From the sequence record MH359124: DNA of 64,000 nt. One strand, 5' to 3'. This stretch comes from Escherichia phage SF. A program made the position numbers and the translations under genes. The notes under the pieces were generated by a model that made no database searches, was not told where the DNA came from, and saw only the letters and a program-made list of their open reading frames with translations. Shown piece after piece: positions 3,251-55,539 of this stretch (its first letter is position 1; every line of letters begins with the position of its first letter).

Positions 3251-3252
3251 TT

Positions 3253-4301: not shown

Positions 4302-4311
4302 AGGTGAAATT

Positions 4312-4653: not shown

Positions 4654-4655
4654 TT

Positions 4656-4686
4656 GTTTACAAGGTCTATGGTTATGTTATTATAG
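4656..4686 (+). promoter_or_regulatory. T4-type early promoter
   Basis: GTTTAC ... TATTATAG spacing. Confidence 0.5.
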
Positions 4687-4711
4687 ACCTATCAACTACT
4701 GGAGGTAAAAC

Positions 4712-5239: not shown

Positions 5240-5301
5240 ACGCTTTACCCAAGGACGGGTTATAATGGTTTTGAGTTCTAATTCAATCTGAGGAAATAGT
5301 T

Positions 5302-6297: not shown

Positions 6298-6352
6298 TGT
6301 ACAACCAAGGATGGTTAGAGTATAATAAATTTTTCAACATGAGGAATATAAA

Positions 6353-10719: not shown

Positions 10720-11193
10720 ATGTTATTATCAGGCGCAAAATACAAAGAAGAAAAACAAAAATTTTATGATGCACAGAATGGTAAGTGTCCTATTTGCCAC
10801 CGTGAATTAGACCCTGATGTTCAAGGTAACCATCTTGACCACGACCACGAATTAAACGGGCCAAAAGCAGGTAGAGTTCGTGGGTTACTCTGTAATCTGT
10901 GCAACGCAGCAGAAGGCCAAATGAAGCATAAGTTCAACCGTTCCGGTCTTAAAGGACGTGATGTCGACTACCTCGAATGGCTTGAAGCTCTTCTTGCTTA
11001 TTTGAAACAAGATTATTCTGATAATAATATCCATCCTAATTTTGTTCCAGACAAAACTAAAGAGTTCTCAAGACTAGGTAAAGAGGAAATGATGGCTGAG
11101 ATGCTTCAAAGAGGATTTGAATATAATGAATCTGATACCAAAACACAATTAATAGCTTCATTCAAAAAGCAGCTTAGAAAGAGTTTAAAATGA
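10720..11193 (+). CDS. 49: Endonuclease VII (Holliday junction resolvase)
   Basis: 157 aa, CPICHRELD...HLDHDHELNG...CNLCNAAEG matches T4 gp49. Confidence 0.92.
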   Translation: MLLSGAKYKEEKQKFYDAQNGKCPICHRELDPDVQGNHLDHDHELNGPKAGRVRGLLCNLCNAAEGQMKHKFNRSGLKGRDVDYLEWLEALLAYLKQDYSDNNIHPNFVPDKTKEFSRLGKEEMMAEMLQRGFEYNESDTKTQLIASFKKQLRKSLK

Positions 11194-13007
11194 AAATTGA
11201 AAAAGAAATTGAAGGATTAATTCATAAAACTAATAAAGATCTTTTGAACGAGAATGCTAATAAAGATTCTCGTGTTTTTCCAACTCAACGGGACCTTATG
11301 GCTGGTATTGTGTCTAAGCACATTGCCAAAAATATGGTCCCGTCTTTTATTATGAAAGCACATGAAAGCGGAATTATCCATTTCCATGATATTGATTATT
11401 CCCCTGCACTTCCATTTACTAATTGCTGTTTAGTAGATTTAAAAGGAATGCTTGAAAACGGATTTAAGCTAGGTAACGCTCAAATTGAAACGCCTAAATC
11501 GATCGGTGTTGCTACTGCAATTATGGCACAAATTACTGCACAGGTTGCTTCTCATCAATATGGCGGAACGACTTTTGCGAATGTAGATAAAGTACTTTCT
11601 CCTTATGTTAAACGCACCTATGCAAAACATATTGAGGATGCAGAAAAATGGCAAATCGCTGATGCGTTGAATTATGCTCAATCCAAAACAGAAAAAGATG
11701 TCTATGACGCGTTCCAAGCTTATGAATATGAAGTAAATACTCTCTTTAGTTCAAACGGACAAACGCCTTTTGTAACAATTACATTTGGTACTGGAACTGA
11801 CTGGACTGAACGAATTATTCAGAAGGCAATTCTTAAAAACCGCATTAAAGGCCTTGGTCGTGATGGAATAACTCCTATTTTCCCTAAGCTTGTTATGTTC
11901 GTTGAAGAAGGCGTTAATCTTTATAAAGATGATCCAAACTATGATATTAAACAACTTGCGTTAGAATGTGCAAGCAAAAGAATGTATCCTGACATTATTT
12001 CGGTTAAGAATAATAAAGCTATTACCGGTTCTTCAGTTCCTGTTTCTCCAATGGGTTGCCGTAGTTTCTTGAGCGTATGGAAAGATTCGACTGGTAATGA
12101 AATTCTTGATGGACGTAATAATCTCGGTGTTGTAACACTGAATCTTCCTCGTATCGCATTAGATTCTTATATTGGAACACAGTTCAATGAACAGAAATTT
12201 ATTGAATTGTTCAATGAACGAATGGATTTGTGTTTTGAAGCATTGATGTGTAGAATTAGTTCTTTAAAGGGTGTTAAAGCGACTGTTGCTCCTATTCTTT
12301 ACCAAGAAGGTGCATTTGGGGTTCGTCTTAAACCTGACGATGATATAATTGAGTTATTTAAAAACGGTAGAAGTTCAGTGTCTTTAGGATACATTGGTAT
12401 TCACGAATTGAATATTCTTGTCGGTCGTGATATTGGACAAGAAATTTTGACTAAAATGAATGCTCGTCTTAAGCAGTGGACTGAAAGAACTGGATTTGCT
12501 TTTAGTTTATACTCTACTCCTGCTGAAAACCTTTGTTATCGCTTCTGTAAACTTGATACTGAAAAATATGGAAGTGTAAAGGATGTTACTGATAAAGGCT
12601 GGTACACTAATAGTTTCCATGTTTCAGTAGAAGAAAATATCACTCCGTTTGAAAAGATTTCTCGCGAAGCCCCATATCATTTCATTGCGACAGGCGGTCA
12701 CATTTCTTATGTTGAACTTCCTGATATGAAAAATAACTTAAAAGGTCTTGAGGCTGTCTGGGATTACGCTGCACAACATTTAGATTATTTTGGTGTTAAT
12801 ATGCCAGTAGATAAATGTTTTACATGTGGAAGTACACATGAAATGACTCCTACTGAAAACGGATTTGTTTGTTCTATTTGTGGAGAAACTGATCCTAAAA
12901 AGATGAACACCATAAGAAGAACATGCGGTTATCTTGGAAATCCGAACGAACGTGGATTTAATCTCGGCAAAAATAAAGAAATCATGCATAGGGTTAAACA
13001 CCAATGA
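11190..13007 (+). CDS. nrdD: Anaerobic ribonucleoside-triphosphate reductase, uninterrupted
   Basis: 605 aa, T4 NrdD-like throughout; C-terminal glycyl-radical and Zn-Cys region. Confidence 0.92.
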   Translation: MKIEKEIEGLIHKTNKDLLNENANKDSRVFPTQRDLMAGIVSKHIAKNMVPSFIMKAHESGIIHFHDIDYSPALPFTNCCLVDLKGMLENGFKLGNAQIETPKSIGVATAIMAQITAQVASHQYGGTTFANVDKVLSPYVKRTYAKHIEDAEKWQIADALNYAQSKTEKDVYDAFQAYEYEVNTLFSSNGQTPFVTITFGTGTDWTERIIQKAILKNRIKGLGRDGITPIFPKLVMFVEEGVNLYKDDPNYDIKQLALECASKRMYPDIISVKNNKAITGSSVPVSPMGCRSFLSVWKDSTGNEILDGRNNLGVVTLNLPRIALDSYIGTQFNEQKFIELFNERMDLCFEALMCRISSLKGVKATVAPILYQEGAFGVRLKPDDDIIELFKNGRSSVSLGYIGIHELNILVGRDIGQEILTKMNARLKQWTERTGFAFSLYSTPAENLCYRFCKLDTEKYGSVKDVTDKGWYTNSFHVSVEENITPFEKISREAPYHFIATGGHISYVELPDMKNNLKGLEAVWDYAAQHLDYFGVNMPVDKCFTCGSTHEMTPTENGFVCSICGETDPKKMNTIRRTCGYLGNPNERGFNLGKNKEIMHRVKHQ

Positions 13008-13474
13008 ATTATGATAGATTTTATCCTTGCGATTTTGTGAATGGCCCTGGATGCAGGGTCGTTCTTTTCGTTACAGGTTGTTTGCATAAATGCGAGGGGT
13101 GTTATAATAAATCAACATGGAATGCTAGAAACGGTATTCCATTCACTGGTGAAACACTAGAACAATTAATTGAATGTTTGAATAATGATTATATAGAAGG
13201 ATTAACTATAACTGGAGGAGACCCTCTCTATCCTGATAACCGAGATGTTATTCACTCTGTAGTTCAAACAGTAAAAAATCTTTATCCCAATAAAAGCATT
13301 TGGTTGTGGACAGGATATAAGTTTGAAGATATTAAACAACTAGAAATGCTTAAATATGTTGATGTTATTATTGATGGGAAGTATGAGAAAAATCTTCCGA
13401 CTAAAAAACTGTGGCGAGGATCAGATAATCAGCGACTTTGGTCAAATACCGATGGGGTGTGGAAACATGATTAA
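13004..13474 (+). CDS. nrdG: Anaerobic RNR activating protein (radical SAM)
   Basis: 156 aa; Cys cluster CLHKCEGC; position after nrdD. Confidence 0.88.
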   Translation: MNYDRFYPCDFVNGPGCRVVLFVTGCLHKCEGCYNKSTWNARNGIPFTGETLEQLIECLNNDYIEGLTITGGDPLYPDNRDVIHSVVQTVKNLYPNKSIWLWTGYKFEDIKQLEMLKYVDVIIDGKYEKNLPTKKLWRGSDNQRLWSNTDGVWKHD

Positions 13475-24647: not shown

Positions 24648-25016
24648 ATGATTGAAATTAAATTGAAGAACCCTGAAGATTTTCTGAAAGTCAAAGAGAC
24701 TCTGACCCGTATGGGCATCGCTAATAACAAGGATAAAGTCCTTTACCAATCTTGTCATATCCTCCAAAAGCAAGGTAAGTACTATATCGTCCACTTTAAA
24801 GAAATGTTGCGTATGGATGGACGTCAGGTTGATATTGACGGTGAAGATTATCAGAGACGTGATTCGATTGCTCAGTTGCTTGAGGACTGGGGATTGATTG
24901 TTATTGAAGACTCTGCTCGTGAAGATCTATTTAGCCTGACTAATAACTTCCGAGTTATCTCTTTTAAACAGAAAGATGACTGGACTTTGAAAGCAAAATA
25001 TACAATTGGTAATTAA
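24648..25016 (+). CDS. regA: Translational repressor RegA
   Basis: MIEIKLKNPEDFLKVKETLTRMGIANNKD... matches T4 RegA. Confidence 0.9.
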   Translation: MIEIKLKNPEDFLKVKETLTRMGIANNKDKVLYQSCHILQKQGKYYIVHFKEMLRMDGRQVDIDGEDYQRRDSIAQLLEDWGLIVIEDSAREDLFSLTNNFRVISFKQKDDWTLKAKYTIGN

Positions 25017-25020
25017 AGCA

Positions 25021-25041
25021 ATGGGACTTCGGTCCCATTTG
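25021..25041 (+). terminator. UUCG-tetraloop hairpin (GGGAC-TTCG-GTCCC) after regA
   Basis: Seen in sequence; short T tract only. Confidence 0.4.
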
Positions 25042-25068
25042 GAGTATAATAAGTTCATCAACAAACAA

Positions 25069-25097
25069 AAGACAATAACTCGTCTAAAGGAAATTAA
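25069..25097 (+). promoter_or_regulatory. Candidate gp43 translational operator: 4-bp stem AGAC/GTCT with 8-nt loop AATAACTC immediately 5' of the SD
   Basis: Hairpin plus SD architecture; T4 gp43 is known to autoregulate via a hairpin operator. Confidence 0.45.
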
Positions 25098-27809
25098 ATG
25101 AAAGAATTTTACTTAACGGTTGAACAGATTGGTGATTCAATTTTCGAACGTTATATCGATTCTAACGGACGTGAACGTGTTCGTGAAGTAGAGTATAAGC
25201 CCTCGTTGTTTGCACATTGTCCAGAAAGTCAGGCCACGAAATATTTTGATATCTATGGTAAACCTTGTACTCGTAAACTGTTCGCTAACATGCGTGACGC
25301 GTCTCAATGGATTAAACGCATGGAAGATATCGGACTTGAAGCACTTGGCATGGACGATTTCAAATTGGCGTATTTGTCTGACACTTATAACTATGAAATC
25401 AAATATGACCATACAAAAATTCGTGTGGCTAACTTCGACATCGAAGTAACATCTCCGGACGGGTTCCCTGAGCCGTCACAAGCAAAACATCCGATTGATG
25501 CTATTACCCATTATGACTCAATTGACGACAGGTTCTACGTATTTGATCTATTGAATTCTCCATATGGTAATGTAGAAGAATGGTCTATCGAAATTGCGGC
25601 TAAGCTTCAAGAACAAGGTGGTGATGAAGTTCCGTCTGAAATTATCGATAAAATCATTTATATGCCGTTCGATAACGAAAAAGAATTGTTGATGGAATAT
25701 CTCAACTTCTGGCAACAGAAAACTCCTGTCATTTTGACTGGATGGAACGTTGAGTCATTTGATATTCCATATGTGTATAACCGAATCAAGAATATTTTTG
25801 GCGAATCTACCGCGAAACGTTTATCACCACATCGTAAAACTCGTGTTAAAGTTATCGAAAACATGTATGGTTCTCGTGAAATCATTACATTGTTCGGTAT
25901 CTCTGTTCTTGATTACATTGACCTTTACAAAAAATTCTCTTTTACCAATCAACCGTCATATTCTCTGGATTACATTTCAGAATTTGAATTGAACGTTGGT
26001 AAACTGAAATATGACGGCCCTATTTCTAAGCTTCGTGAAAGCAATCACCAACGATATATTTCTTATAACATTATCGACGTGTATCGTGTATTGCAAATTG
26101 ATGCTAAGCGTCAGTTCATCAACTTGAGTTTGGACATGGGTTATTATGCTAAGATACAGATTCAATCTGTGTTTAGTCCAATTAAAACATGGGATGCTAT
26201 TATTTTTAATAGCCTTAAAGAGCAGAACAAGGTGATTCCACAAGGTCGTTCTCACCCGGTTCAACCTTATCCTGGCGCTTTTGTTAAGGAACCTATTCCA
26301 AATCGATACAAATATGTAATGAGTTTCGACCTTACATCTCTGTATCCAAGTATTATTCGCCAAGTGAATATTAGCCCGGAAACAATAGCAGGAACGTTTA
26401 AAGTAGCTCCACTGCATGATTATATTAATGCAATCGCTGAACGTCCTTCTGATGTGTACAGTTGCTCTCCTAACGGCATGATGTATTATAAAGACCGTGA
26501 TGGTGTAGTTCCAACTGAAATCACTAAGGTCTTTAATCAACGTAAAGAACATAAAGGTTACATGCTTGCAGCTCAACGTAATGGTGAAATAATTAAAGAG
26601 GCATTGCATAATCCTAATCTTTCTGTTGACGAACCATTAGATGTTGATTATCGTTTCGACTTCAGCGATGAGATTAAAGAAAAGATTAAAAAGTTGTCTG
26701 CTAAATCTCTTAATGAAATGTTGTTTAGAGCTCAACGTACTGAAGTTGCAGGTATGACTGCACAGATTAACCGTAAATTGCTCATCAACTCGCTTTATGG
26801 TGCACTTGGAAACGTTTGGTTCCGTTATTACGATTTGCGTAATGCTACTGCAATCACAACATTTGGTCAAATGGCTTTACAGTGGATTGAACGTAAAGTT
26901 AATGAATATCTGAATGAAGTTTGTGGTACAGAAGGCGAAGCTTTCGTTCTATATGGTGATACAGACTCCATTTACGTATCTGCAGATAAAATTATTGATA
27001 AGGTTGGTGAATCTAAATTCCGTGATACCAACCATTGGGTAGACTTCTTAGATAAGTTTGCACGTGAACGTATGGAACCTGCTATTGATAGAGGTTTCCG
27101 TGAAATGTGCGAATACATGAATAATAAGCAACATTTGATGTTCATGGACCGAGAAGCTATCGCTGGGCCTCCACTCGGTTCTAAAGGTATTGGTGGATTC
27201 TGGACTGGTAAGAAACGTTATGCCTTAAACGTGTGGGATATGGAAGGTACTCGTTACGCTGAGCCTAAACTCAAAATCATGGGTCTAGAGACTCAGAAAT
27301 CTTCGACTCCTAAAGCAGTACAGAAAGCTCTTAAAGAATGTATTCGTCGTATGCTTCAAGAAGGTGAAGAATCATTACAAGAATATTTTAAAGAGTTTGA
27401 AAAAGAATTCCGTCGATTGAATTATATTAGCATCGCGTCGGTATCTTCTGCGAATAACATTGCTAAATATGATGTAGGTGGATTCCCTGGTCCCAAATGC
27501 CCGTTCCATATTCGTGGAATTCTGACGTATAACCGGGCTATCAAAGGTAATATCGATGCACCGCAAGTTGTAGAAGGTGAAAAAGTATATGTTCTGCCTT
27601 TACGTGAAGGAAACCCATTCGGTGATAAATGTATCGCATGGCCTTCTGGTACTGAAATCACAGATTTAATTAAAGACGACGTACTTCATTGGATGGACTA
27701 CACTGTTCTCCTTGAGAAGACATTTATTAAACCACTTGAAGGATTCACATCAGCAGCGAAACTCGATTATGAGAAGAAAGCATCTCTGTTCGATATGTTC
27801 GATTTTTGA
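25098..27809 (+). CDS. 43: DNA polymerase gp43 (family B)
   Basis: 903 aa; exo motif FDIEV, YGDTDS polymerase motif. Confidence 0.96.
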   Translation: MKEFYLTVEQIGDSIFERYIDSNGRERVREVEYKPSLFAHCPESQATKYFDIYGKPCTRKLFANMRDASQWIKRMEDIGLEALGMDDFKLAYLSDTYNYEIKYDHTKIRVANFDIEVTSPDGFPEPSQAKHPIDAITHYDSIDDRFYVFDLLNSPYGNVEEWSIEIAAKLQEQGGDEVPSEIIDKIIYMPFDNEKELLMEYLNFWQQKTPVILTGWNVESFDIPYVYNRIKNIFGESTAKRLSPHRKTRVKVIENMYGSREIITLFGISVLDYIDLYKKFSFTNQPSYSLDYISEFELNVGKLKYDGPISKLRESNHQRYISYNIIDVYRVLQIDAKRQFINLSLDMGYYAKIQIQSVFSPIKTWDAIIFNSLKEQNKVIPQGRSHPVQPYPGAFVKEPIPNRYKYVMSFDLTSLYPSIIRQVNISPETIAGTFKVAPLHDYINAIAERPSDVYSCSPNGMMYYKDRDGVVPTEITKVFNQRKEHKGYMLAAQRNGEIIKEALHNPNLSVDEPLDVDYRFDFSDEIKEKIKKLSAKSLNEMLFRAQRTEVAGMTAQINRKLLINSLYGALGNVWFRYYDLRNATAITTFGQMALQWIERKVNEYLNEVCGTEGEAFVLYGDTDSIYVSADKIIDKVGESKFRDTNHWVDFLDKFARERMEPAIDRGFREMCEYMNNKQHLMFMDREAIAGPPLGSKGIGGFWTGKKRYALNVWDMEGTRYAEPKLKIMGLETQKSSTPKAVQKALKECIRRMLQEGEESLQEYFKEFEKEFRRLNYISIASVSSANNIAKYDVGGFPGPKCPFHIRGILTYNRAIKGNIDAPQVVEGEKVYVLPLREGNPFGDKCIAWPSGTEITDLIKDDVLHWMDYTVLLEKTFIKPLEGFTSAAKLDYEKKASLFDMFDF

Positions 27810-27849: not shown

Positions 27850-28485
27850 ATGAAAACTACTCCTATTACTATCGCTATTGACGCAATCATAAAACAAGCT
27901 TCTTCTTTGGCCGCTATGGCCAAAGTAATTAGTCAAAACCCTGCTCGTTATAATGCTATTTTAGAAACTCTTCGACGCCCGGGACTTAGTAATTATGAAA
28001 GCCGAGTAATTATTACAGGTGTTGGTAAGAACGCTAATATCGCAACTAAAGCTTCTGAGACTTTTGCTTCACTCGGTATACCGAGTATGTACTTGAACAC
28101 TGGGCATTATTCTCACGGTGATGCAGGATTCATTGCGCCTAATGATGTGTTGATTCATATTAGTCGTTCTGGTAAAACTGAAGAAATGATAGGTGTGGCT
28201 AAGCATCTTAAAATGATTCGTCCGAACGTCAAACAGATTCTGTTGCATTGTAACCCAGACATTCCGCAAGAAAATGAAGCCCTTTTTGATTACTCTTTCT
28301 GTACAGGCATCGCTGTAGAAGTTGACGAGAACTCTTTAGCTCCGACTATGTCCACTACATTGTTGTTAGCGCTTATCGATACGTTTGCTATCAACCTTTC
28401 GTCTGAACGTGGATTTACCTCTAATGACTTCCTTAAGTTCCACCCTGGTGGTGCACTAGGTGCCATGTTACGAGGCGAACAATGA
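27850..28485 (+). CDS. SIS-domain sugar-phosphate isomerase, arabinose-5-phosphate isomerase (KdsD/GutQ) type, no CBS domains
   Basis: ITGVGKN, HGDAG, ISRSGKTEE, APTMSTT, FHPGGALG match the KdsD-type SIS signature. Confidence 0.8.
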   Translation: MKTTPITIAIDAIIKQASSLAAMAKVISQNPARYNAILETLRRPGLSNYESRVIITGVGKNANIATKASETFASLGIPSMYLNTGHYSHGDAGFIAPNDVLIHISRSGKTEEMIGVAKHLKMIRPNVKQILLHCNPDIPQENEALFDYSFCTGIAVEVDENSLAPTMSTTLLLALIDTFAINLSSERGFTSNDFLKFHPGGALGAMLRGEQ

Positions 28486-28625
28486 AAGCAATAACAATAG
28501 GACTTTTACTATTGATGCTTGTCATGACTATCTACTGGAGCTTAACGGCTCCAGTAATGGTCCCGACTCTTATAATCGGATGGATTATGATTGGACTACA
28601 AGCAAAGTATGAATGCTTTAACTAG
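28482..28625 (+). CDS. Hypothetical small membrane peptide (47 aa)
   Basis: Hand-translated MKAITIGLLLLMLVMTIYW...; ATG overlaps upstream stop (ATGA). Confidence 0.35.
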   Translation: MKAITIGLLLLMLVMTIYWSLTAPVMVPTLIIGWIMIGLQAKYECFN

Positions 28626-28666
28626 AATAGTGTACAATACTCCTACTTACCAATGAGGACCACAAC

Positions 28667-30352
28667 ATGAAAAAAGCTGTTATTCTTGGTGCTGGACTGG
28701 CAACTCGTTTGTATCCAATAACGCATCATATTCCTAAGGTGCTTGTTAACTATAAACAAGACACTATTCTGAGCAATTTGTATACAATCTATTCTGACCT
28801 TGGCGCAGATGAAATTATTGTAGTAGTTCATTCAAAATTTGCTGAAACCGTTCGAGCTTATTGTGAGCAAGAAGGGTTCAATGTGACTATTCGTACAGTT
28901 GATGAAGCGTATGGTTCTGCTTATGCTCTTGCTAAATTACACAAAGATTTAGACGGCCATAATGTAATTGTTAACTGGTGTGATATTATTCCCGATTTTG
29001 GTTCATGGTCTTGGAATGTTAACGCAATCTATGTTAAGGGTGACGAATGTCGATATAATTTCGACGGTGAAAATATCACTAACGTAGGTTCAACAGGTGG
29101 TAATGTTGTAGGAATTTATCAGTTCAAAGACTGGGAATTCTATATGGGTTCTACTGATGAGGAAATTCATGAATACTGCAAAGGACGCGATTTCGTAGAA
29201 TTCCTTTACGGCAGTGCATTCAATAAATCAGAGCTTATGAATCTAATTGATTTAGGTGATATGCCTAAACTTGAAAAAGCTCATGAAGTTCGTGAACTTA
29301 ATCGTAGTTTTAATGCAGTTGAAATTGGTGAAGAAACTGTAACTAAATTCGCATTAACCGAACAGGGTCGAGCTCTTCAGAAAGATGAGATTTCGTGGTA
29401 TCTTAAAGTGAAATCAGATTCAGTTCCTCAGTTAGTTTCTGTTAATGAAAATAACTTTGAAATGGAACGCATTAAAGGTAAGCCGGCATTTGAATATATT
29501 AAATCCAAATCAAGTCTTGCTCGACCACAAATTGTTGATGCAATCTTAGATGCACTGAAATTCAGCACAGACACTTATTTTGTAAGTCCTGAAACTGTTC
29601 GTCGTGATTTCACTAAAGAATTCTATACTAAAGTTATTGATCGTTGCGAAAGTATTCAACCATTGATTGATTCATTTGGTAAAATCACACATGTGAACTA
29701 CACTAAGATCGGACGTCTGAAGCCAATGTTGAAACAAGCTTTAGAACACCTTATTCGTTATCATAACCGTTCTCAGGGACAGTACTCTGTTATTCATGGC
29801 GACCCGAACTTCAGTAATACTATGATTACTGATAATGGTGAAGTCAAGTTTATCGACCCTCGTGGATATTTTGGCGAAACCAAGATTTACGGACCAAAAT
29901 TGTATGATGAAGCTAAAGTGCTTTACGCCGTTTCAGGTTATGATGAATTCAACGCTAATCCGACCTGGGGGCAGTTTACTATTGATGAAACAACTTGTAA
30001 TGTGACTATTAACATCAATCCATTAGTTTACAAATATGGAAAGATGAGTTCGTTTAACGAGTATCATCATTTGGCAGTGGCAATTATCTGGATTGCATTA
30101 GGTGGTTATTTCAAGAATAATCCACTTAAAGCGGTAGCCGCATATTATAAAGGTATGGAACTTCTGACTAAGCAATTACGTAACATGGGCCGTGTACTTC
30201 AGGACGGCTCTATTAGTTACGACGTAGCAGAACCTGTAACGGCTACTCTGATTACAAAAAATCCTGGTAAATGGGTACTAACTGATAAAGAAACTGGTGT
30301 TTCTTATCGTCCAATCGGTGGCGATATCACTCATCAATGGGAACGAATCTAA
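28667..30352 (+). CDS. Bifunctional sugar-1-phosphate nucleotidyltransferase (N-terminal) / APH-type sugar kinase (C-terminal)
   Basis: N-terminus ILGAGLATRL (NTP-transferase G-x-G-x-R loop); C-terminus IHGDPNFSN...FIDPRG (APH/ChoK catalytic loop and metal-binding D). Confidence 0.75.
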   Translation: MKKAVILGAGLATRLYPITHHIPKVLVNYKQDTILSNLYTIYSDLGADEIIVVVHSKFAETVRAYCEQEGFNVTIRTVDEAYGSAYALAKLHKDLDGHNVIVNWCDIIPDFGSWSWNVNAIYVKGDECRYNFDGENITNVGSTGGNVVGIYQFKDWEFYMGSTDEEIHEYCKGRDFVEFLYGSAFNKSELMNLIDLGDMPKLEKAHEVRELNRSFNAVEIGEETVTKFALTEQGRALQKDEISWYLKVKSDSVPQLVSVNENNFEMERIKGKPAFEYIKSKSSLARPQIVDAILDALKFSTDTYFVSPETVRRDFTKEFYTKVIDRCESIQPLIDSFGKITHVNYTKIGRLKPMLKQALEHLIRYHNRSQGQYSVIHGDPNFSNTMITDNGEVKFIDPRGYFGETKIYGPKLYDEAKVLYAVSGYDEFNANPTWGQFTIDETTCNVTININPLVYKYGKMSSFNEYHHLAVAIIWIALGGYFKNNPLKAVAAYYKGMELLTKQLRNMGRVLQDGSISYDVAEPVTATLITKNPGKWVLTDKETGVSYRPIGGDITHQWERI

Positions 30353-30738
30353 TGCACCGTGTAGAAAACATGCTTAATCTTTGTTTTGATGTCGATGATT
30401 GTATAACAGAGTGGAATAACAATCGTGATTACGTGAACTTCAAACCAGACGTCGAAATGGTGTCTGCCATTAATGCCCTGTATGATGCAGGGCATACCAT
30501 AACGCTTTACACTGCTCGCGGTATGAAGTCAGTCGGTCCTGGTCGTATAGCAATTGACATTCTCCCAAGTCTGATTCAGAACTTGTCAAACATTGGATTG
30601 AAGTACCATAATTTGCTAACACATAAACCAGTATATGATTGGATTATCGACGACAAAGCTATGCGTCCTGACGAATTCAAAGCTCTTATGAATAAAGGCG
30701 AATTCGAAACATTTAAATCATATAAACCGAATCTATAA
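30352..30738 (+). CDS. HAD-superfamily phosphatase (KdsC-like motif DVDDCIT)
   Basis: DxD nucleophile motif near N-terminus, DDK motif near C-terminus; TAATG coupling to upstream gene. Confidence 0.6.
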   Translation: MHRVENMLNLCFDVDDCITEWNNNRDYVNFKPDVEMVSAINALYDAGHTITLYTARGMKSVGPGRIAIDILPSLIQNLSNIGLKYHNLLTHKPVYDWIIDDKAMRPDEFKALMNKGEFETFKSYKPNL

Positions 30739-30798
30739 TAATTTAAGTAAGACCTGCAAAAACCATCGCGTCAATTAACGTGAGATGCAAAAAAAAAA

Positions 30799-31959
30799 AT
30801 GAATACTTTTAAAATCGGAACGAATTTTGATTTAGCTCTTCTTGATAAAATCGTAGAGCTCAATAAAACTTATCCTAATAGCTTGATAAACGAAGTATAC
30901 GGCTCTACAAGAGAAATGGCTTTTGTAGCAGCCAGACCTGATTTTAGGCTTCCTGACGTTGACAAAAAGATGTTAGAAGATTACGTTAAACGTTGTAACG
31001 AATTGGGTATTTGCTTTAACTATACACTCAACACGATAAATCCTGGTTCAAAAAGAGAACTAGTTGAGTGGAAGAAGAAAGCTATTCAGGATTATGTTCA
31101 GTATCTTTGGTCAATAGGTGTATGGCGTATTACTATCGCTAACCCTGTTGTTATGGAAATTGTTCGTGAAGTCAATAAAGACATTGAGATTGAAGTTTCA
31201 ACAATTCTACATGTCGATGCTGTAACTCAAATCAAATACTTGCATGACCAATATAATATCAAAAAGGTCTGCTGTGGAATTCATAAGAACCGTTCAGTTT
31301 CTTTCCTGAAGCGTGCAGCAGAGTTTTGTAATAAGAACAATATAATATTTGAAGTTCTCGTAAATGAATTCTGCTCTAATGCTGGTAAAGGGTATACAAC
31401 ACATTGTAGCTATCGTGACTCTTGCTATATTTTCCATAGCACCGATGTTACAGTAGATGATGCCAAATCCTTAAATGGATATCCAATGCAACACTGTATT
31501 AAAGCTCGTGATACAGATCCATTTAACTGGTTGAGAACTCGTTTTGTTCGTCCTCAAGATTTGAAACTTTATAATGATATTGGTATCACTCAATTTAAAG
31601 TTTCGGGACGTACAGGTAGCACAGACTACATTTTGAAAGTTCTTGAAGCTTATGCTTCTGAAAAGTTTGAAGGTAATTTGTTAGAACTGTGGAAGCCTTT
31701 AGAGACCATTTTCACTCTTGAAAATGAGACCGAGTTTTCACATACGGTAAATATTGAAACCTCTTTGTTAGATGGCTTTTTAGAAAAAAGGTGGTTCAAA
31801 CATCCGGATTTCGATTGTGCTAATGAAATCTGCGGGACGACGTGTACATATTGTGAAAGATATTATAAACGTCAGTTATCTAAAAATGGGTTATCAGAAA
31901 ACTCTATATCTATTATTGATATAACTAACTCTGATGACGCTTTGAGGTACCCAGAATGA
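30799..31959 (+). CDS. Cys-rich protein, possible peptidase-U32-family / Fe-S enzyme
   Basis: YTLNTI, EIEVSTILH, EVLVNEFCS...HCSYRDSC resemble U32 blocks; C-terminal CGTTCTYC (CX3CX2C). Confidence 0.4.
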   Translation: MNTFKIGTNFDLALLDKIVELNKTYPNSLINEVYGSTREMAFVAARPDFRLPDVDKKMLEDYVKRCNELGICFNYTLNTINPGSKRELVEWKKKAIQDYVQYLWSIGVWRITIANPVVMEIVREVNKDIEIEVSTILHVDAVTQIKYLHDQYNIKKVCCGIHKNRSVSFLKRAAEFCNKNNIIFEVLVNEFCSNAGKGYTTHCSYRDSCYIFHSTDVTVDDAKSLNGYPMQHCIKARDTDPFNWLRTRFVRPQDLKLYNDIGITQFKVSGRTGSTDYILKVLEAYASEKFEGNLLELWKPLETIFTLENETEFSHTVNIETSLLDGFLEKRWFKHPDFDCANEICGTTCTYCERYYKRQLSKNGLSENSISIIDITNSDDALRYPE

Positions 31960-32040
31960 TTTCTAGAAAAAACTTTTAACCACCAACTTAACGAAGAGAT
32001 TTTGACTATGAAAATTAACAGCAACGAACAAATTCTTAAA

Positions 32041-32061
32041 AAGGCCCTTATGGGCCTTTTT
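32041..32061 (+). terminator. Hairpin GGCCC-TTAT-GGGCC followed by T5
   Basis: Seen in sequence. Confidence 0.55.
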
Positions 32062-32237
32062 GAAACTAAAGCGGCTAAAGTGATTAAAGAGCCTGTTCAA
32101 TTGTAATACTACGCTGATGCATTTCTTCATAGCGTTCTTGGAAGTATCGATGCTGAAGCTTTACGTTATATCAACATCGCTAAGAAATTCAAATAAGCTT
32201 TATGAATTGAGTATATAATAACTGTATTGAGGTAAAC

Positions 32238-32954
32238 ATGGGAAAACATAACACAATGAAATATATTAAAGCCGCAGATTTTCAATCCGCATTTAAAGCT
32301 GTCAATCGTGAAATTTTAGAAAATCCACAGTTCGTTACTGATTCTCGTATTGGACGTTGTAATGAAATTGGGTCTATGACAGTAGTTGTTGATACCCCTT
32401 CATCATTCAAAATGACCGACCCACGTATTAATCGCATCTCTTATGAATATGCTGAAGATTTCTGGAAATTTATGATTTCTGGTGGTACTGATGCAGAAGA
32501 AGCATTTAAGGCATATCCTAATGTCGCTAAATTTATTTCTAAACCAAAATCAGATGCTTTGCCTACGAACTTCAACACTTTCTATGGTCCTCGCATTGCG
32601 GCCCAGTTACCAGCTCTTCTCAAAGAACTTAAAGAGAAACCTAATTCACGAAGAGTTGTGTTCCAAATTCTAGAAAGTTCAGATCAGGCTTTGCTTGATT
32701 CAGACGAAACACTTGAATATCCATGTACTGACTCAGTGACTTATTATATTCGTGATGGTAAGCTTTATACCCACTGTCATATGCGTTCTCAGAACTGTGC
32801 TGTTGTTATGCAGTTGGATTTTTATCTCCAAGGAAAATTACTTCATTATATCGCTAACGAATGTGGTGTAGAAGTTGGTGATTATACTCATACCATGGTA
32901 AGTGCCCATGTGTTTGAACGTGATTTTGATTATGTTAAAGGATTCCTTGACTAA
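32238..32954 (+). CDS. 42: dCMP hydroxymethylase (thymidylate-synthase fold), divergent from T4 gp42
   Basis: NSRR, PCTDS (nucleophile Cys), YIRD, HMRSQN...QLDFY align with T4 dCH catalytic blocks; syntenic between 43 and uvsX. Confidence 0.7.
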   Translation: MGKHNTMKYIKAADFQSAFKAVNREILENPQFVTDSRIGRCNEIGSMTVVVDTPSSFKMTDPRINRISYEYAEDFWKFMISGGTDAEEAFKAYPNVAKFISKPKSDALPTNFNTFYGPRIAAQLPALLKELKEKPNSRRVVFQILESSDQALLDSDETLEYPCTDSVTYYIRDGKLYTHCHMRSQNCAVVMQLDFYLQGKLLHYIANECGVEVGDYTHTMVSAHVFERDFDYVKGFLD

Positions 32955-33853
32955 TGGCTATTTTCCGCGTACCTATCTTGAGTATGCGGTCTTATGAAAC
33001 TGGACAGTATGCTATCCTTAAGGATGGCAACTTCCAACTTCATTTGCACCGTGCTAATCCAGGTGATGTGATTACATATCCACGTAATGCATCTGATATT
33101 AAAGAATGTGAACGTCTTTTCCCGGAATTTAAGTTTGTTCCATTATGGTATAAAGATAACGCATATAACACTCGTAAATATTTCTGGTCTGAAAATGAAT
33201 TTGTGGTTGATTCATTAATTGATTATTATGATTGTGATTTTCTAATCACAGATATCACTGGATATGACGGCACTTTTGACGTAGAATTCAATTTCAATAT
33301 CACTGCGGACCCTAATAAACCACGTTTTTATATTGACGAATTCTTAAAAACCGACATGTTGTCTGTTAATCGTTCACTTCAAACTACTGTGTTGAATGAA
33401 CGTCAAAAAGAAGTGCTGGTTAACGCAGGTGCAGATGGTAATAAGATTATCGTAACCCGGAAAGTTATACGTCCTTCCATCATGCAGCGTCTTGTAGGTG
33501 ATTTGGCTCCTATTCATCTAGATGGTATTTTTCATCCATTTCGAATTAGTGACCCGTGTTATCGTTTTGAACAAGTGGTTGAATGTGCAATTCAATTAGG
33601 TCAACCGCTTTATATAACCGATCCAAATAATAGCTTCGACAGAAATAAGTATCCTGAAGAAGCGCTGATTCGAATTTTTAATCCAACTAAAACTGAGTAC
33701 TATCAAATTCTTAAAGGACGGCCGAAGATTCAATATTTCGAAAATCCTGAAGAAGTATTCCATCCAGGTCTTGGCGAGTTCATCTACTTTAACGCTTTAA
33801 TTTCTTCACCGTATAATATACCTAAATATGAAGATGTCGTAATCGAGGAATAA
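32954..33853 (+). CDS. Hypothetical protein (299 aa) at the position of T4 beta-gt
   Basis: ORF; no motif recognised. Confidence 0.5.
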   Translation: MAIFRVPILSMRSYETGQYAILKDGNFQLHLHRANPGDVITYPRNASDIKECERLFPEFKFVPLWYKDNAYNTRKYFWSENEFVVDSLIDYYDCDFLITDITGYDGTFDVEFNFNITADPNKPRFYIDEFLKTDMLSVNRSLQTTVLNERQKEVLVNAGADGNKIIVTRKVIRPSIMQRLVGDLAPIHLDGIFHPFRISDPCYRFEQVVECAIQLGQPLYITDPNNSFDRNKYPEEALIRIFNPTKTEYYQILKGRPKIQYFENPEEVFHPGLGEFIYFNALISSPYNIPKYEDVVIEE

Positions 33854-33854
33854 A

Positions 33855-34403
33855 ATGGCTAAAATTATTTTAGTAGATGGCCCGGATAATGCTGGTAAAA
33901 CAACTTTCATTAATGACATAATGGAAATTAGTGAAAGATATGTAAAGATTGATTTCCCTAAACGAACAGTTGATGGACGTTTCGACGTTAAGTCTCGAAA
34001 TGAAGTTGGCTGTTTCGAAACGATGTTGAATTATTTAGACCCTACTAAGATTTATCTGTTAGACCGTGGATATATTAGTAACTGGGTTTATGGACGTATT
34101 CGACAAGATGCGGACTCGGTTCTTGACGTTTATGAACAGGATTATGTTCGTCTTTGCCAAAACCACGATGTGTTCACAATTATTTTAACACGTAACGAAA
34201 TGACTGAAAGTTTTGAAGACGACCTTATTACTTTGTCTTCATTCGGTTTTAATACAGTAATTTCATATTTTGAAGAGTTTGCAATCCATAACGAAATCCA
34301 AACGTATCAATTACTTAATCATGATGGTGCTAACAAAGTTATAGGATTTAATGCAAGCGAACGTAATAATTTGATTACAGAAATCATCAAATGGGCTCGT
34401 TAA
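33855..34403 (+). CDS. P-loop nucleotide kinase, thymidylate/dNMP-kinase-like
   Basis: Walker A GPDNAGKTT and DRGY motif resembling the TMPK DRY motif. Confidence 0.55.
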   Translation: MAKIILVDGPDNAGKTTFINDIMEISERYVKIDFPKRTVDGRFDVKSRNEVGCFETMLNYLDPTKIYLLDRGYISNWVYGRIRQDADSVLDVYEQDYVRLCQNHDVFTIILTRNEMTESFEDDLITLSSFGFNTVISYFEEFAIHNEIQTYQLLNHDGANKVIGFNASERNNLITEIIKWAR

Positions 34404-34423
34404 GAGCCTGTTTAAAGTTTTTA

Positions 34424-34503: not shown

Positions 34504-35676
34504 ATGTCTGATTTAAAATCTCGTCTGATTAAAGCTTCTACTTCTAAAATGACCGCAGACTTGACTAAGTCTAAGTTGTTTAATAATCGCGATGAAGTCC
34601 CTACTCGTATTCCGATGTTGAATATTGCATTAGGTGGTGCACTGAATGCTGGGTTGCAATCAGGCTTAACTATTTTTGCTGCTCCTTCTAAACACTTTAA
34701 AACGTTGTTTGGACTGACCATGGTTGCAGCATATATGAAGAAATATAAAGATGCAATTTGTTTGTTCTATGATTCTGAATTTGGTGCTTCAGAATCTTAT
34801 TTTCGTTCAATGGGTGTTGATTTAGACCGTGTAGTTCATACTCCGATTCAATCTGTCGAACAACTTAAAGTTGATATGACTAATCAGCTTGATGCTATCG
34901 AACGCGGTGATAAAGTTATTATCTTTATCGATTCAATCGGTAATACTGCATCTAAGAAAGAAACTGAAGATGCATTGAACGAGAAAGTCGTAGGTGATAT
35001 GTCTCGTGCTAAGGCACTTAAATCTCTTTTCCGTATTGTGACTCCTTATCTGACTATTAAAGATATTCCGTGTGTTGCAATCAACCATACAGCAATGGAA
35101 ATTGGCGGATTGTATCCTAAAGAGATTATGGGTGGTGGTACAGGTATTCTTTATTCTGCCAACACGGTATTTTTTATCTCTAAACGTCAGGTTAAAGAAG
35201 GTACAGAATTGACCGGTTATGACTTCACGTTGAAAGCAGAAAAATCTCGTACGGTTAAAGAAAAATCTACTTTCCCAATCACGGTTAATTTCGATGGTGG
35301 TATTGACCCATTCAGTGGCTTGTTAGAAATGGCAACTGAAATTGGTTTTGTAGTTAAGCCTAAAGCTGGTTGGTATGCTCGTGAATTCCTTGACGAGGAA
35401 ACAGGCGAAATGATTCGTGAAGAGAAATCATGGCGTGCTAAAGCTACTGATTGTGTAGAATTCTGGGGACCGTTGTTTAAACACAAACCTTTCCGAGATG
35501 CAATTGAAACTAAATATAAGCTAGGTGCTATCTCTTCTATTAAAGAAGTTGATGACGCTGTTAACGACCTTATTAATTGCAAAGCAACAACTAAAGTTCC
35601 GGTTAAAACTTCTGATGCTCCGTCTGCAGCAGATATAGAAAACGACCTTGACGAAATGGAAGATTTCGATGAATAA
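34504..35676 (+). CDS. uvsX: Recombinase UvsX (RecA-like)
   Basis: 390 aa, matches T4 UvsX. Confidence 0.95.
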   Translation: MSDLKSRLIKASTSKMTADLTKSKLFNNRDEVPTRIPMLNIALGGALNAGLQSGLTIFAAPSKHFKTLFGLTMVAAYMKKYKDAICLFYDSEFGASESYFRSMGVDLDRVVHTPIQSVEQLKVDMTNQLDAIERGDKVIIFIDSIGNTASKKETEDALNEKVVGDMSRAKALKSLFRIVTPYLTIKDIPCVAINHTAMEIGGLYPKEIMGGGTGILYSANTVFFISKRQVKEGTELTGYDFTLKAEKSRTVKEKSTFPITVNFDGGIDPFSGLLEMATEIGFVVKPKAGWYAREFLDEETGEMIREEKSWRAKATDCVEFWGPLFKHKPFRDAIETKYKLGAISSIKEVDDAVNDLINCKATTKVPVKTSDAPSAADIENDLDEMEDFDE

Positions 35677-42239: not shown

Positions 42240-42273
42240 TAACTTCTCTTATACTGAATTGAAAGGAAAAATA

Positions 42274-42795
42274 ATGGCGCACTTTAACGAATGTTCACAA
42301 CTTATTTCTGGTGTTGATAAAGCAGAAGAAGCTTATTTTAATGCTCTGATTCATGAAGATAAAGACCCATTGCAGGTAATGCTTGATATGCAGAAATCTT
42401 TACAGGTTCGTCTGGCAAATGACAAGCCTGAACATAACAAACATCCTGATGAATTGGCCACTGCTGGCGATGTTGTTGATTGGCTGCGTAATCAGAAAGA
42501 TTATATCGATGATGAATTCCGTGAACTGCTGACTTCACTTGGTGGTATGAGCAATGGTGAAAAAGCCGCTAGCTCTGTATGGAAGCCGTGGAAAGCACAA
42601 CATGCTGAATATCGAAATCGACGTATCGATGAACTGTCTCCTGAAGACCAGCTTGAAATTAAATTCGAGATGATTGATATCCTCCACTTTGTTCTGAATA
42701 TGTTCCAAGGCCTAGGTCTTTCCGCTGAAGAAATCTTTAAACTTTACTACTTGAAAAACCAACACAACTTTGAACGCCAGGATAATGGTTACTGA
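42274..42795 (+). CDS. 56: dCTP/dCDP pyrophosphatase gp56 (MazG-like)
   Basis: MAHFNEC...matches T4 gp56. Confidence 0.9.
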   Translation: MAHFNECSQLISGVDKAEEAYFNALIHEDKDPLQVMLDMQKSLQVRLANDKPEHNKHPDELATAGDVVDWLRNQKDYIDDEFRELLTSLGGMSNGEKAASSVWKPWKAQHAEYRNRRIDELSPEDQLEIKFEMIDILHFVLNMFQGLGLSAEEIFKLYYLKNQHNFERQDNGY

Positions 42796-54438: not shown

Positions 54439-55539
54439 ATGAAAGTTATGTTTATCCCATCTCGTGCAGTCCCATTTAATCCTGACCGTGTACAAGGTGG
54501 TCTTGAAGCAGTACATTTAAATGTGCTGAAATATTTAGTTTCTATTGGTGCCGATATTGATTATATCGGTTTTGATAATGACACGTTTGGTGACTGGAAA
54601 GTTACACACCACCCTGTTGGACATCTGACTAAATTCAGTCTAGGTATGAGTTATACTATGGCTCGTAAGATTGTTGAACTAGCCGGCATCCATGAATACG
54701 ATTTTGTTGTTACTATGGAACCGACTAAACTAACCGTTCAGGCAATTAAAGACGCAGGTCTCTCTAAAGTTCATAAGAATTTTATGGCAACACCATTTGA
54801 ACCTGTATCTCGTGGCATTGTTCAAATTTGGGACCAGACTATTCAAATTCATAAGAATGGTGGTAAGAGTTATGCTCCTACTAAAGCCTTCCGTGAATTT
54901 GAACGCAAATATTGTTATATGACTTCAGGTCTGACTGACAAAATTGATTATGATTATTGGCGAGCAAATCCGTTGTTTGAAGCCGAAGATTATCCGGTTA
55001 TTTGTTTGAATGAGAAACCTGAAGTTCTTCCTGCGACTGATCTGATTATTAGTGCACAACGTTATGACACTAAAATGCGTCGTACTGATGTTGCTCTTGA
55101 AGCGATTAAAGCACTAGGCGAAAATGGTGTAGGATACTGTCCAAGCAAATGGGCACCACCAGCTAAATATCCTGTTATTATTGATGCTCCACACAGTGAA
55201 ATCATGGAACGTCTTAAAACAGCTAAAGCACTTATTAATACGTGTCCTGACACAGGTACGGTAGAGAATAGTTCTATTGAAGCCATCTCTAAAGGTGTCC
55301 CTGTAATCCAGTTAGTTTTTAAGGATTATCCTCATGCGACATTCGAATACGACCCAGATACTGTGCGTGTAGAAATTGATTCCTCTACTCCTAAGAAAGA
55401 AGTAGTTGCGCTTTACACAAAAGCTGTATTAGAATTCACTGACACATACGAAGCTCGAGTTAAACGTGCTGAAGCAGTATGGAAGAAGTATAACCGAGAT
55501 GCAGTTGTTGCGATGTGGGATAAAATCTTCACAGCGTAA
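54439..55539 (+). CDS. GT-B-fold glycosyltransferase (GT4-like), candidate DNA hydroxymethylcytosine glycosyl(arabinosyl)transferase
   Basis: C-terminal GTVENSSIEAISKGVPVI resembles the GT4 EX7E region; inserted between 39 and rIIA where T4 has only a small ORF. Confidence 0.6.
   Translation: MKVMFIPSRAVPFNPDRVQGGLEAVHLNVLKYLVSIGADIDYIGFDNDTFGDWKVTHHPVGHLTKFSLGMSYTMARKIVELAGIHEYDFVVTMEPTKLTVQAIKDAGLSKVHKNFMATPFEPVSRGIVQIWDQTIQIHKNGGKSYAPTKAFREFERKYCYMTSGLTDKIDYDYWRANPLFEAEDYPVICLNEKPEVLPATDLIISAQRYDTKMRRTDVALEAIKALGENGVGYCPSKWAPPAKYPVIIDAPHSEIMERLKTAKALINTCPDTGTVENSSIEAISKGVPVIQLVFKDYPHATFEYDPDTVRVEIDSSTPKKEVVALYTKAVLEFTDTYEARVKRAEAVWKKYNRDAVVAMWDKIFTA

Follow-up and report, generated by a model that had tools for sequence, protein, structure and literature searches.

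The closest described relatives of the locus considered here are the cytosine hypermodification systems of phages RB69 and HY126. RB69 DNA contains beta-D-Araf-(1-3)-alpha-D-Araf-5-hydroxy-2'-deoxycytidine, with an ether link directly at C5, as determined by nuclear magnetic resonance (NMR) (PMC13326640). Its flavin-binding protein gp48 forms 5-hydroxy-deoxycytidine monophosphate (5hodCMP) with oxygen from 18O2 (Lee et al., PMC13326640), and a signature at position 169, D169N in E. coli ThyA numbering, predicts this 5-hydroxylase activity (PMC13326640). In Mosigvirus NP, 5-ara-dC and 5-ara-ara-dC were detected by liquid chromatography-mass spectrometry (LC-MS) (PMC13390438). In the 2018 view, the base was arabinosyl-5-hydroxymethylcytosine (ara-hmC), and ORF055c and ORF53_52c were proposed for the synthesis of uridine diphosphate (UDP)-arabinose (Thomas et al., PMC6024577). 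The corresponding module of Escherichia phage SF was analyzed in a 64,000-nucleotide stretch of sequence record MH359124 (the window), where it lies between gene 43 and uvsX. The module itself is already published (Thomas 2018; Mahler 2025; He 2026; Lee 2026). What deserves follow-up is a connection of one of its products, a U32-family protein homologous to RB69 gp50, with chorismate mutase and anaerobiosis, which is not in the literature searched and which makes this protein a candidate O2-independent hydroxylase.

The seven plus-strand open reading frames (ORFs) of the module were found between gp43 (25098-27809) and UvsX (34504-35676), where the original prediction, made from the letters alone, had placed them; its count of seven genes was a slight undercount, as a 47-aa ORF and the remnant of RB69 ORF049 also lie in the interval. 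Its comparison with T4 was right as well, the same slot being occupied there by imm.1, imm, 42, b-gt, and segA, and so was its view of the interval as an RB69-group module for sugar-nucleotide synthesis and DNA hypermodification that stands in for T4 glucosylation. Profile hidden Markov model (HMM) searches supported the predicted families (SIS, NTP_transferase, HAD, Peptidase_U32, Thymidylat_synt, and TMPK-like), the APH and HAD matches being sub-threshold. The block matched 231 phage records; in 150 of these, from Mosigvirus (RB69-like) phages, the match covered at least 80% of the query at 95-99% identity, and Escherichia phage PNJ-6 was the closest (98.2%). The gene order was that of RB69 ORFs 45-55 and of HY126; given this order and the identity, the window is therefore a segment of a Mosigvirus genome, and the interval is very probably a cytosine hypermodification locus of the RB69/HY126 type. 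The ratio of nonsynonymous to synonymous substitution rates (dN/dS) against Enterobacter phage Entb_45 was 0.04-0.13 for six module genes, while dS was saturated for the U32 gene. A promoter scan was uninformative (21 sites against 26.8 expected). The importance of the module for phage therapy and phage engineering, and the resistance of its DNA to many restriction enzymes, CRISPR nucleases, and sequencing chemistries, are already in the literature.

O2-independent hydroxylation is the common thread of the characterised U32 subfamilies: TrhP acts at C5 of U34 in tRNA (ho5U34), RlhA at C5 of C2501 in 23S rRNA (ho5C2501), and UbiU/V at three ring positions in ubiquinone biosynthesis (PMC10990095). 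Prephenate is the oxygen donor for UbiU/V, as found by 18O labelling, and has been proposed as such for the whole U32 family; in vitro hydroxylase activity of U32 proteins has not yet been shown, and an assay is awaited (PMC10990095). The window protein matched Pfam Peptidase_U32 (6.3e-11, 42.4 bits against a cut-off of 22.4), and its AlphaFold2 (AF2) model reached a predicted local distance difference test (pLDDT) score of 91.8, with the U32 protein 5d88 as the best PDB match. Beyond 5d88, the Foldseek search against PDB returned generic TIM barrels only, so that there was no solved TrhP, RlhA, or UbiU/V to compare, and a PDB sequence search gave no match. Alignment of the profile of the phage U32 clade with E. 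coli TrhP/RlhA/UbiU/UbiV by hhalign yielded 96.3% probability and an E value of 1.9e-9. Ten cysteines (C158, C177, C192, C203, C209, C233, C340, C345, C349, and C352) were invariant or nearly so in 121 homologs, whose alignment reaches down to about 49% identity; by their number they would be enough for two clusters. C203 and C209, spaced CX5C, align with cysteines one and two of the canonical Fe-S motif, and the last four form a C-terminal motif CX4CX3CX2C (C340-x4-C345-x3-C349-x2-C352). With 87% identity to its Entb_45 counterpart, the U32 protein was the second most conserved product of the module (83% for the ThyA homolog and 68% for the 299-aa glycosyltransferase (GT)).

In Entb_45, a 79-aa AroQ chorismate mutase (Pfam CM_2 40.9 bits against a cut-off of 27; several NCBIfam chorismate mutase models at about 3e-9) is encoded between the U32 protein and the ThyA homolog, and its start overlaps the U32 stop. 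Using tblastn, this gene was found in 51 phage records of sister genera, with the same neighbourhood in every record listed; the hosts were Klebsiella, Serratia (including LC53 and 92A1), Yersinia, Enterobacter, Edwardsiella, Erwinia, Pectobacterium, Shewanella, Providencia, Morganella, Kosakonia, and E. coli (phage EcS1). It was also present in 13 of 15 Tevenvirinae loci from IMG/VR. The census further comprised 39 non-Tevenvirinae loci of uncultured phages, some of them redundant, with U32 proteins at 40-56% identity. The U32 gene abuts a 3-deoxy-D-arabino-heptulosonate 7-phosphate (DAHP) synthase gene in seven uncultured-phage loci, and in five of these the synthase is fused to a C-terminal CM_2 domain (E 1e-9 to 2e-24). 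A DAHP_synth_1 neighbour in locus L010 was considered as an arabinose 5-phosphate (Ara5P)-using 3-deoxy-D-manno-octulosonate 8-phosphate (KDO-8-P) synthase and rejected, as it scored 237 bits to DAHP synthase against 63 to KDO8PS.

A homolog of the 299-aa GT was encoded on the same strand, at most 5 kb from U32, in 26 of the 39 loci (abutting in eight and within about 200 bp in six), and the bifunctional kinase/nucleotidyltransferase, the thymidylate kinase (TMPK)-like kinase, the isomerase, and deoxycytidine monophosphate (dCMP) deaminase in 17, 11, 10, and six, respectively. Recurrent gene orders were kinase-GT-U32, GT-isomerase-bifunctional-(DAHP synthase-chorismate mutase)-U32, and U32-GT-bifunctional; eight uncultured-phage loci contained kinase, GT, and U32 only, without arabinose genes or a ThyA homolog. 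None of the 39 loci showed a ThyA-type hydroxylase up to about 10 kb from U32 or, for one contig, in the 26 of 44 kb covered, and the ThyA match in locus L033, with L143/D169/N177, was an ordinary thymidylate synthase. The systems of RB69, Maestro, DLP3, WG01, and RL38J1 all share the trio of ThyA hydroxylase, GT, and TMPK-like kinase. From these partnerships and the U32-only cassettes, the U32 protein thus holds the position and partners of the hydroxylase.

The U32 gene was seen only in facultative and strict anaerobes or in their phages. It was present in 220 phage records, full-length in 220 of 220, and the hosts listed were all Enterobacterales or Shewanella. The ThyA hydroxylase was present in 376 records, 57 of them from Acinetobacter phages and 22 from Rhizobium phages, and no phages of these two host genera were seen among the U32 matches. 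Among 100,044 species-representative genomes, the U32 clade occurred in eight, all from anaerobic lineages (Erysipelotrichales, a Bacillota metagenome-assembled genome (MAG), Lachnospiraceae, two Romboutsia, BRC1, Tannerella, and Phocaeicola faecalis). The window also encodes NrdD (605 aa, Pfam NRDD 5e-171) and NrdG (156 aa), an anaerobic ribonucleotide reductase and its activase, at 11190-13474, preceded by endonuclease VII at 10720-11193; the presence of NrdD/NrdG indicates that the phage is therefore equipped for replication without oxygen, when an O2-dependent hydroxylase would be unable to provide the sole cytosine nucleotide it has.

Because of its family, its chorismate mutase or DAHP synthase-chorismate mutase neighbours, the displacement of the ThyA hydroxylase, and the anaerobe distribution, the U32 protein is read, with moderate confidence, as a putative prephenate-dependent, O2-independent C5 hydroxylase of free pyrimidine deoxynucleotides and as a new U32 subfamily. 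At low oxygen, it would oxidise the pyrimidine ring through Fe-S clusters and capture hydroxide from the decarboxylation of prephenate, yielding the 5-hydroxy nucleotide that the ThyA homolog also makes, together with phenylpyruvate. Prephenate would be supplied by host PheA/TyrA, the phage chorismate mutase of the sister genera being apparently lost, and the TMPK-like kinase would phosphorylate the hydroxylated monophosphate. DNA modification could then continue in the anoxic gut, a setting in which the O2-dependent enzyme is unable to function. If this holds, RB69-like phages would carry two non-homologous dCMP 5-hydroxylases, one using flavin and O2 and the other U32 chemistry and prephenate. 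In many uncultured phages of anaerobes, U32 would be the sole hydroxylase, within a minimal hydroxylase-kinase-GT cassette that in some cases includes its own chorismate mutase or DAHP synthase-chorismate mutase. The use of 5-hydroxycytosine (5hoC) in place of 5-hydroxymethylcytosine (hmC) made cytosine modification O2-dependent, which is awkward for a gut phage that destroys its own deoxycytidine triphosphate (dCTP) pool, and an O2-independent hydroxylase, if confirmed, would resolve this dependence. Phages with and without U32 would then also be expected to differ, depending on oxygen, in host range and in their evasion of restriction, and a U32 enzyme acting on a soluble nucleotide would offer a tractable system for prephenate-dependent hydroxylation chemistry.

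Several points weigh against this assignment. Direct HMM scores to the characterised U32 hydroxylases were only 6-15 bits, indicating a remote relationship, and the phage proteins are therefore regarded as a distinct subfamily. The canonical motif CX6CX15CX3C is not kept as such, two of its cysteines being aligned and the third and fourth unaligned. No chorismate mutase was found in the window, the Mosigvirus slot being occupied by an unrelated 79-aa ORF that is broken here. The search for ThyA hydroxylases covered the local surroundings of U32, and the phyletic pattern comes from a small number of independent clades. Some 40 records of Escherichia phages (e.g., Dhakavirus WG01) have the ThyA hydroxylase without U32, and a phage can therefore live in a facultative anaerobe without this protein; a strict aerobe-versus-anaerobe host rule for the presence of U32 fails on these E. 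coli Dhakaviruses, and the rule is one-way. An experiment or demonstrated role for gp50/U32 was not found in the literature searched, which did not include He et al. (2026) or Mahler et al. (2025), where the gene may already have been assigned or tested. Full-text searches for a tie between phage DNA modification and U32, chorismate mutase, or prephenate returned nothing relevant. The discussion in PMC13326640 states that RNA hydroxylation by RlhA and TrhP/TrhO uses no homolog of the 5hodCMP synthase, and gp50 is not connected with it there.

The single mention of gp50, as a "sugar or heterocycle reductase" in Table 1 of PMC13326640, also counts against the hydroxylase and suggests instead an enzyme of the sugar branch or a redox helper, acting, for example, in pentose modification or flavin reduction. 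The position of the gene between those of the HAD phosphatase and the ThyA homolog would fit such a role, and the many cysteines would suit any Fe-S redox enzyme. This alternative is nevertheless improbable, since U32 is missing from Dhakavirus and from Acinetobacter phages even though their sugar branch is complete and the ThyA hydroxylase is present, and two of the latter, DLP3 and Maestro, are reported to make arabinosylated 5hoC (PMC13326640) while lacking it. The eight kinase-GT-U32 loci, for their part, have U32 where a sugar pathway and a ThyA homolog are missing, and a sugar or flavin role leaves the recurrent chorismate mutase or DAHP synthase-chorismate mutase neighbour unexplained. 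Somewhat less probable still is that the U32 protein is an RNA hydroxylase of the TrhP/RlhA kind, a true peptidase, or a hydroxylase of cytosine after its incorporation into DNA. TrhP and RlhA are the only U32 enzymes known for pyrimidine C5 hydroxylation, and both act on RNA polymers (PMC10990095); the phage protein shares a CYxxH motif with RlhA, and database annotations call the gene a peptidase or collagenase. Against the RNA and peptidase readings, the U32 gene is tightly linked, on the same strand and in distant phages, to genes for a DNA GT, a nucleotide kinase, dCMP deaminase, and dUTPase; an RNA-binding extension is lacking, and the protein falls far short of the 653 aa of RlhA; and a protease mechanism relevant to this case has been demonstrated for no U32 member. 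Hydroxylation of cytosine already in DNA is compatible with the data.

The slot between the U32 gene and the ThyA homolog in the window contains the remnant of ORF049. An extra A in the A-run at 31967-31972 leads to a stop at 31977-31979, and GAA is changed to TAA at 32104-32106; these breaks may be real or may be homopolymer sequencing errors. The ORF is represented by a 40-aa version in HY126, is partial in PNJ-6, and is intact in most Mosigviruses. Inside the remnant, at 32038-32061, there is a perfect GC-rich hairpin, AAAAAGGCCC-TTAT-GGGCCTTTTT, which is conserved in RB69. ORF049 or its remnant was rejected as a chorismate mutase, as no Pfam or NCBIfam match was obtained and BLASTP against the Entb_45 enzyme gave E=6.9; the slot is common to the two, the sequence is not. 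In Yersinia phages (L024; vB_YenM_TG1, 24991-25489 in record coordinates), an ORF049-like gene and the chorismate mutase gene stand in tandem between U32 and the ThyA homolog, and the Mosigvirus state therefore looks like loss of chorismate mutase rather than its replacement.

Other surroundings of the U32 gene were also observed. In genomes and MAGs of anaerobic bacteria (L070, Phocaeicola faecalis, 3044-7137; L008, 5135-9098; L065), the U32 clade occurs in another conserved block, in which a GP88-family protein, a methyltransferase (a guanylate kinase fusion in L070), and a 265-aa protein precede U32. In L008, U32 is followed by an NT5C nucleotidase, a PnuC-like transporter, a deoxynucleoside kinase, a radical-SAM/SPASM protein, a second U32-like protein, and a nucleoside deoxyribosyltransferase. 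This block may represent a pathway in which a nucleotide is hydroxylated and then methylated. In uncultured large phages (L007, 7447-9086; L011, 6504-8083; one of the contigs measuring 466 kb), the U32 gene comes right after that of a ComEB-type dCMP deaminase, near DNA polymerase III alpha and proteins of the uracil-DNA glycosylase (UDG) family, with a TMPK-like kinase in L007 and no GT nearby; the context hints that some U32 members act on deoxyuridine monophosphate, or that a 5-hydroxyuracil base is made. In two kinase-GT-U32 cassettes (L012, 8098-9000; L039, 11062-11976), a TET-associated glycosyltransferase (TAGT, Pfam 4e-8) stands right after U32 with no TET/JBP dioxygenase in view, and U32 might substitute there for the O2-dependent TET partner.

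Table 1. Features of the hypermodification locus and associated genes in the window.
Feature	Position	Strand	Basis
SIS-only arabinose-5-phosphate isomerase, RB69 gp55 homolog (ribulose 5-phosphate (Ru5P) to Ara5P)	27850-28485	+	profile matches; structure comparison in PMC13326640
Small hydrophobic ORF, 47 aa	28482-28625	+	PHROG 3610, 1e-26, full length; coding sequence at equal place in HY126
Bifunctional kinase/nucleotidyltransferase, 561 aa, RB69 gp52:53 / HY126 AfhE type	28667-30352	+	Pfam and motifs; activities of HY126 ortholog as summarised in PMC13326640
HAD-type phosphatase, RB69 gp51 / HY126 AfhF type (arabinose 1,5-bisphosphate (Ara-1,5-P2) to arabinose 1-phosphate (Ara-1-P))	30352-30738	+	TIGR01689 below cut-off; summary in PMC13326640
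U32-family Fe-S protein, RB69 gp50 homolog; putative O2-independent (d)CMP C5-hydroxylase	30799-31959	+	Pfam, AF2, hhalign, neighbourhood
Broken remnant of RB69 ORF049 (79 aa)	31956-32218	+	alignment to RB69; intact ORF is PHROG 8601
ThyA-superfamily flavin/O2 dCMP 5-hydroxylase (5hodCMP synthase), RB69 gp48 homolog	32238-32954	+	identity, signature, structures, PMC13326640
GT-B DNA arabinosyltransferase 1, 299 aa, RB69 gp46:47 homolog	32954-33853	+	AF2/Foldseek; Table 1 of PMC13326640
TMPK-like P-loop nucleotide kinase, RB69 gp45 homolog; putative 5-hydroxy-dNMP kinase	33855-34403	+	PHROG 761
Terminator-like hairpin, module end	34389-34413	+	consensus scan only
gp56-type dCTPase/dUTPase, dCMP supply and dCTP removal	42259-42795	+	Pfam dUTPase_2 1.2e-6; position as RB69 gene 56; role per Table 1 of PMC13326640
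Arabinosyltransferase 2, RB69 gp3 homolog (second arabinose)	54439-55539	+	identity to RB69p003; PDB; PMC13326640, PMC6024577

The core arabinosyl-5-hydroxycytosine pathway could be assigned with high confidence. The ThyA homolog matched Pfam Thymidylat_synt (2.3e-15) and showed 99% identity to RB69 gp48 and 27% to T4 gp42; structures of near-identical proteins have been solved (9iqc, 9ir2, and 9iqu). Its diagnostic residues are E143/N169/D177/F209, compared with D/D/D/Y in T4 gp42 and L/D/N/Y in E. coli ThyA, and the E143/N169/D177 signature recurs in the homologs of RB69, Maestro, WG01, and Entb_45. The Asp at ThyA-D169 that marks a T4-type gp42 is thus an Asn in the window protein, which, on sequence grounds, is a predicted flavin/O2-dependent dCMP 5-hydroxylase. 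From the identity to gp48 and the signature, the base is therefore read as 5-O-arabinosyl-5-hydroxycytosine and not as ara-hmC, and protein identities of 97-100% suggest arabinosyl-5-hydroxy-dC in the virion DNA of this phage. By analogy with near-identical orthologs in the literature, the gp56 dCTPase would convert dCTP to dCMP, the ThyA homolog would turn dCMP into 5hodCMP with flavin and O2, kinases would raise the product to the triphosphate, and the polymerase would put 5-hydroxy-2'-deoxycytidine (5hodC) where C would go. The model of the original prediction, in which a T4-like dCMP hydroxymethylase leads to hmC, a free-arabinose salvage route supplies the sugar, and ara-hmC is the product, is very improbable: it was the published interpretation in 2018 (PMC6024577), the protein does match thymidylate-synthase and CMP-hydroxymethylase families, and the free-arabinose wording is still in Table 1 of PMC13326640, but ara-hmC has already been refuted for RB69 by LC-MS and NMR, 18O2 labelling and co-injection with a 5hodC standard, together with NMR, place an ether at C5 of 5-hydroxycytosine (PMC13326640), the hmC assignment is labelled erroneous in PMC13390438, the window enzyme is nearly the RB69 hydroxylase itself with N169 in place of the T4 Asp, and the text of PMC13326640 takes up the Ara-1,5-P2 route reported for HY126.

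The sugar branch begins with the 211-aa isomerase, which matched Pfam SIS (1e-10), NCBIfam KpsF/GutQ (2e-32) and KdsD (7e-31), and PHROG 5670 "arabinose 5-phosphate isomerase" (4e-116). The match covers the SIS part alone (positions 47-202 of the 328-position KdsD model), and the tandem CBS pair of KdsD/GutQ enzymes is lacking; it is a truncated, SIS-only form working like an arabinose-5-phosphate isomerase, and the role of RB69 gp55 was assigned by structure comparison (PMC13326640). The bifunctional protein matched Pfam NTP_transferase at its N-terminus (residues 3-99, 8.5e-10) and gave sub-threshold APH/fructosamine-kinase-like matches at residues 344-409, where an APH/choline-kinase-like domain is also indicated by readable HGDPNFSN...IDPRG kinase motifs; a PDB sequence search gave no match. 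The HAD phosphatase matched the NCBIfam capsule-biosynthesis phosphatase model TIGR01689 (3.5e-13, under the curated cut-off), and no match was obtained in Pfam; its start was set at 30352, while the program-made ORF list begins the ORF at 30337. According to the summary of He et al. 2026 given in PMC13326640, AfhE of HY126 converts Ara5P to Ara-1,5-P2 and later forms UDP-arabinose, and the HAD protein AfhF takes off the 5-phosphate. In the window, the SIS isomerase would accordingly be expected to make Ara5P from Ru5P, as near-identical orthologs do in the literature; the C-terminal kinase domain would produce Ara-1,5-P2, the HAD enzyme would remove the 5-phosphate to give Ara-1-P, and the N-terminal nucleotidyltransferase would join Ara-1-P and UTP into UDP-arabinofuranose (UDP-Araf). 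The nucleoside diphosphate-arabinose donor and its origin from ribulose-5-phosphate had thus been foreseen correctly, whereas, going by the HY126 route as summarised in PMC13326640, the pathway has no step through free arabinose. The 47-aa ORF between the isomerase and the bifunctional enzyme is strongly hydrophobic.

The 299-aa protein had no Pfam or NCBIfam match. Its AF2 model (pLDDT 94.7) matched GT-B proteins in Foldseek, namely MshA (3c4q, query TM-score (TMq) 0.60), sucrose-phosphate synthase (6kih, TMq 0.61), and UDP-GlcNAc 2-epimerases, and the homologous RB69 gp46:47 is listed as arabinosyltransferase 1 in Table 1 of PMC13326640. The second enzyme is encoded outside the interval: the gp3 homolog is identical to RB69p003 in 363 of 366 residues, and almost the same protein has been solved as PDB 9iqz/9ir0 ("phage HY126 glycosyltransferase with UDP"). 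Judging by fold comparison, and in a hypothesized order, the two GT-B transferases would add one arabinose and then another to the 5-hydroxyl on DNA; arabinosyl transfer on DNA has been experimentally confirmed only for two DLP3 transferases. The further modification step originally suspected is therefore real in that a second arabinose is added, with its gene lying elsewhere. Of the three proteins that had been given no obvious role, the 299-aa protein now has one as the first arabinosyltransferase, and the U32 protein and the TMPK-like kinase are still without a demonstrated role.

The TMPK-like kinase matched PHROG 761 "thymidylate kinase" (5e-45), with NCBIfam DTMP_kinase far under its cut-off (E=0.01), no significant Pfam match, and no match in a PDB sequence search. 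The motifs GPDNAGKT and LLDRGY are readable in it, and its published fold matches are TMPKs (PMC13326640). The gene was present in every ThyA-hydroxylase module examined and, as noted above, in part of the U32-only modules, and the protein most likely serves the cassette as its dedicated 5-hydroxy-dNMP kinase. Against this role, the RB69 gp1-type dNMP kinase already phosphorylates 5hodCMP (PMC13326640), and the role of the TMPK-like kinase may thus be redundant or different.

Compared with known systems, the window contains the same system as RB69 gp45-gp55 plus gp3 and the Afh system of HY126, with identical gene order and proteins 97-100% identical. It has the hydroxylase signature, the set of SIS, fused kinase/nucleotidyltransferase, and HAD proteins, and the two GT-B enzymes that characterize RB69 and HY126. 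The differences are that ORF049 is broken in the window by a frameshift and a nonsense codon and is shortened in HY126, and that the split ORFs 46/47 and 52/53 of RB69 are single ORFs in the window, as predicted in the literature. With the T4 gene 42/glucosyltransferase system, the locus shares the slot between gene 43 and uvsX and the general scheme, in which a ThyA-family enzyme acts on dCMP, a dCTPase keeps dCTP out, and GT-B enzymes attach sugars to the replicated DNA. Unlike T4, it uses a flavin/O2 hydroxylase (N169) and not a folate-dependent hydroxymethylase (D169), obtains UDP-arabinofuranose from phage enzymes and not UDP-glucose from the host, and forms an ether at C5 instead of a methylene linkage. 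The 5hoC modules of DLP3/Maestro, Dhakavirus WG01, and RL38J1 share the common core of a ThyA-type hydroxylase, a GT of the 299-aa family, and a TMPK-like kinase, and sugar-activation genes as in the window occur in DLP3, Maestro, and WG01; unlike the window, these modules have no U32 or chorismate mutase, and they differ in transferase numbers and, in RL38J1, in the sugars. The sugar branch follows the logic of the GmhB (heptose-1,7-bisphosphate 7-phosphatase) step of ADP-heptose synthesis, with a kinase, a phosphatase for the distal phosphate, and a nucleotidyltransferase. It differs from that route in its pentose substrate, in the fusion of kinase and nucleotidyltransferase, and in a HAD protein that weakly matches the capsule-phosphatase subfamily alone.

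With TrhP, RlhA, UbiU, and UbiV, the phage U32 protein shares the U32 TIM-barrel domain, conserved cysteines, a KxxGR motif, and a genomic tie to prephenate supply. TrhP and UbiU/V have O2-dependent counterparts (TrhO and the flavin enzymes UbiI/H/F; PMC10990095), a pairing mirrored by the flavin-dependent ThyA homolog of the window. Unlike these proteins, the phage U32 protein has the cysteine pattern C192, C203, C209, and C233 with the extra C-terminal CX4CX3CX2C, and its proposed substrate would be a free deoxynucleotide and not RNA or a prenylphenol.

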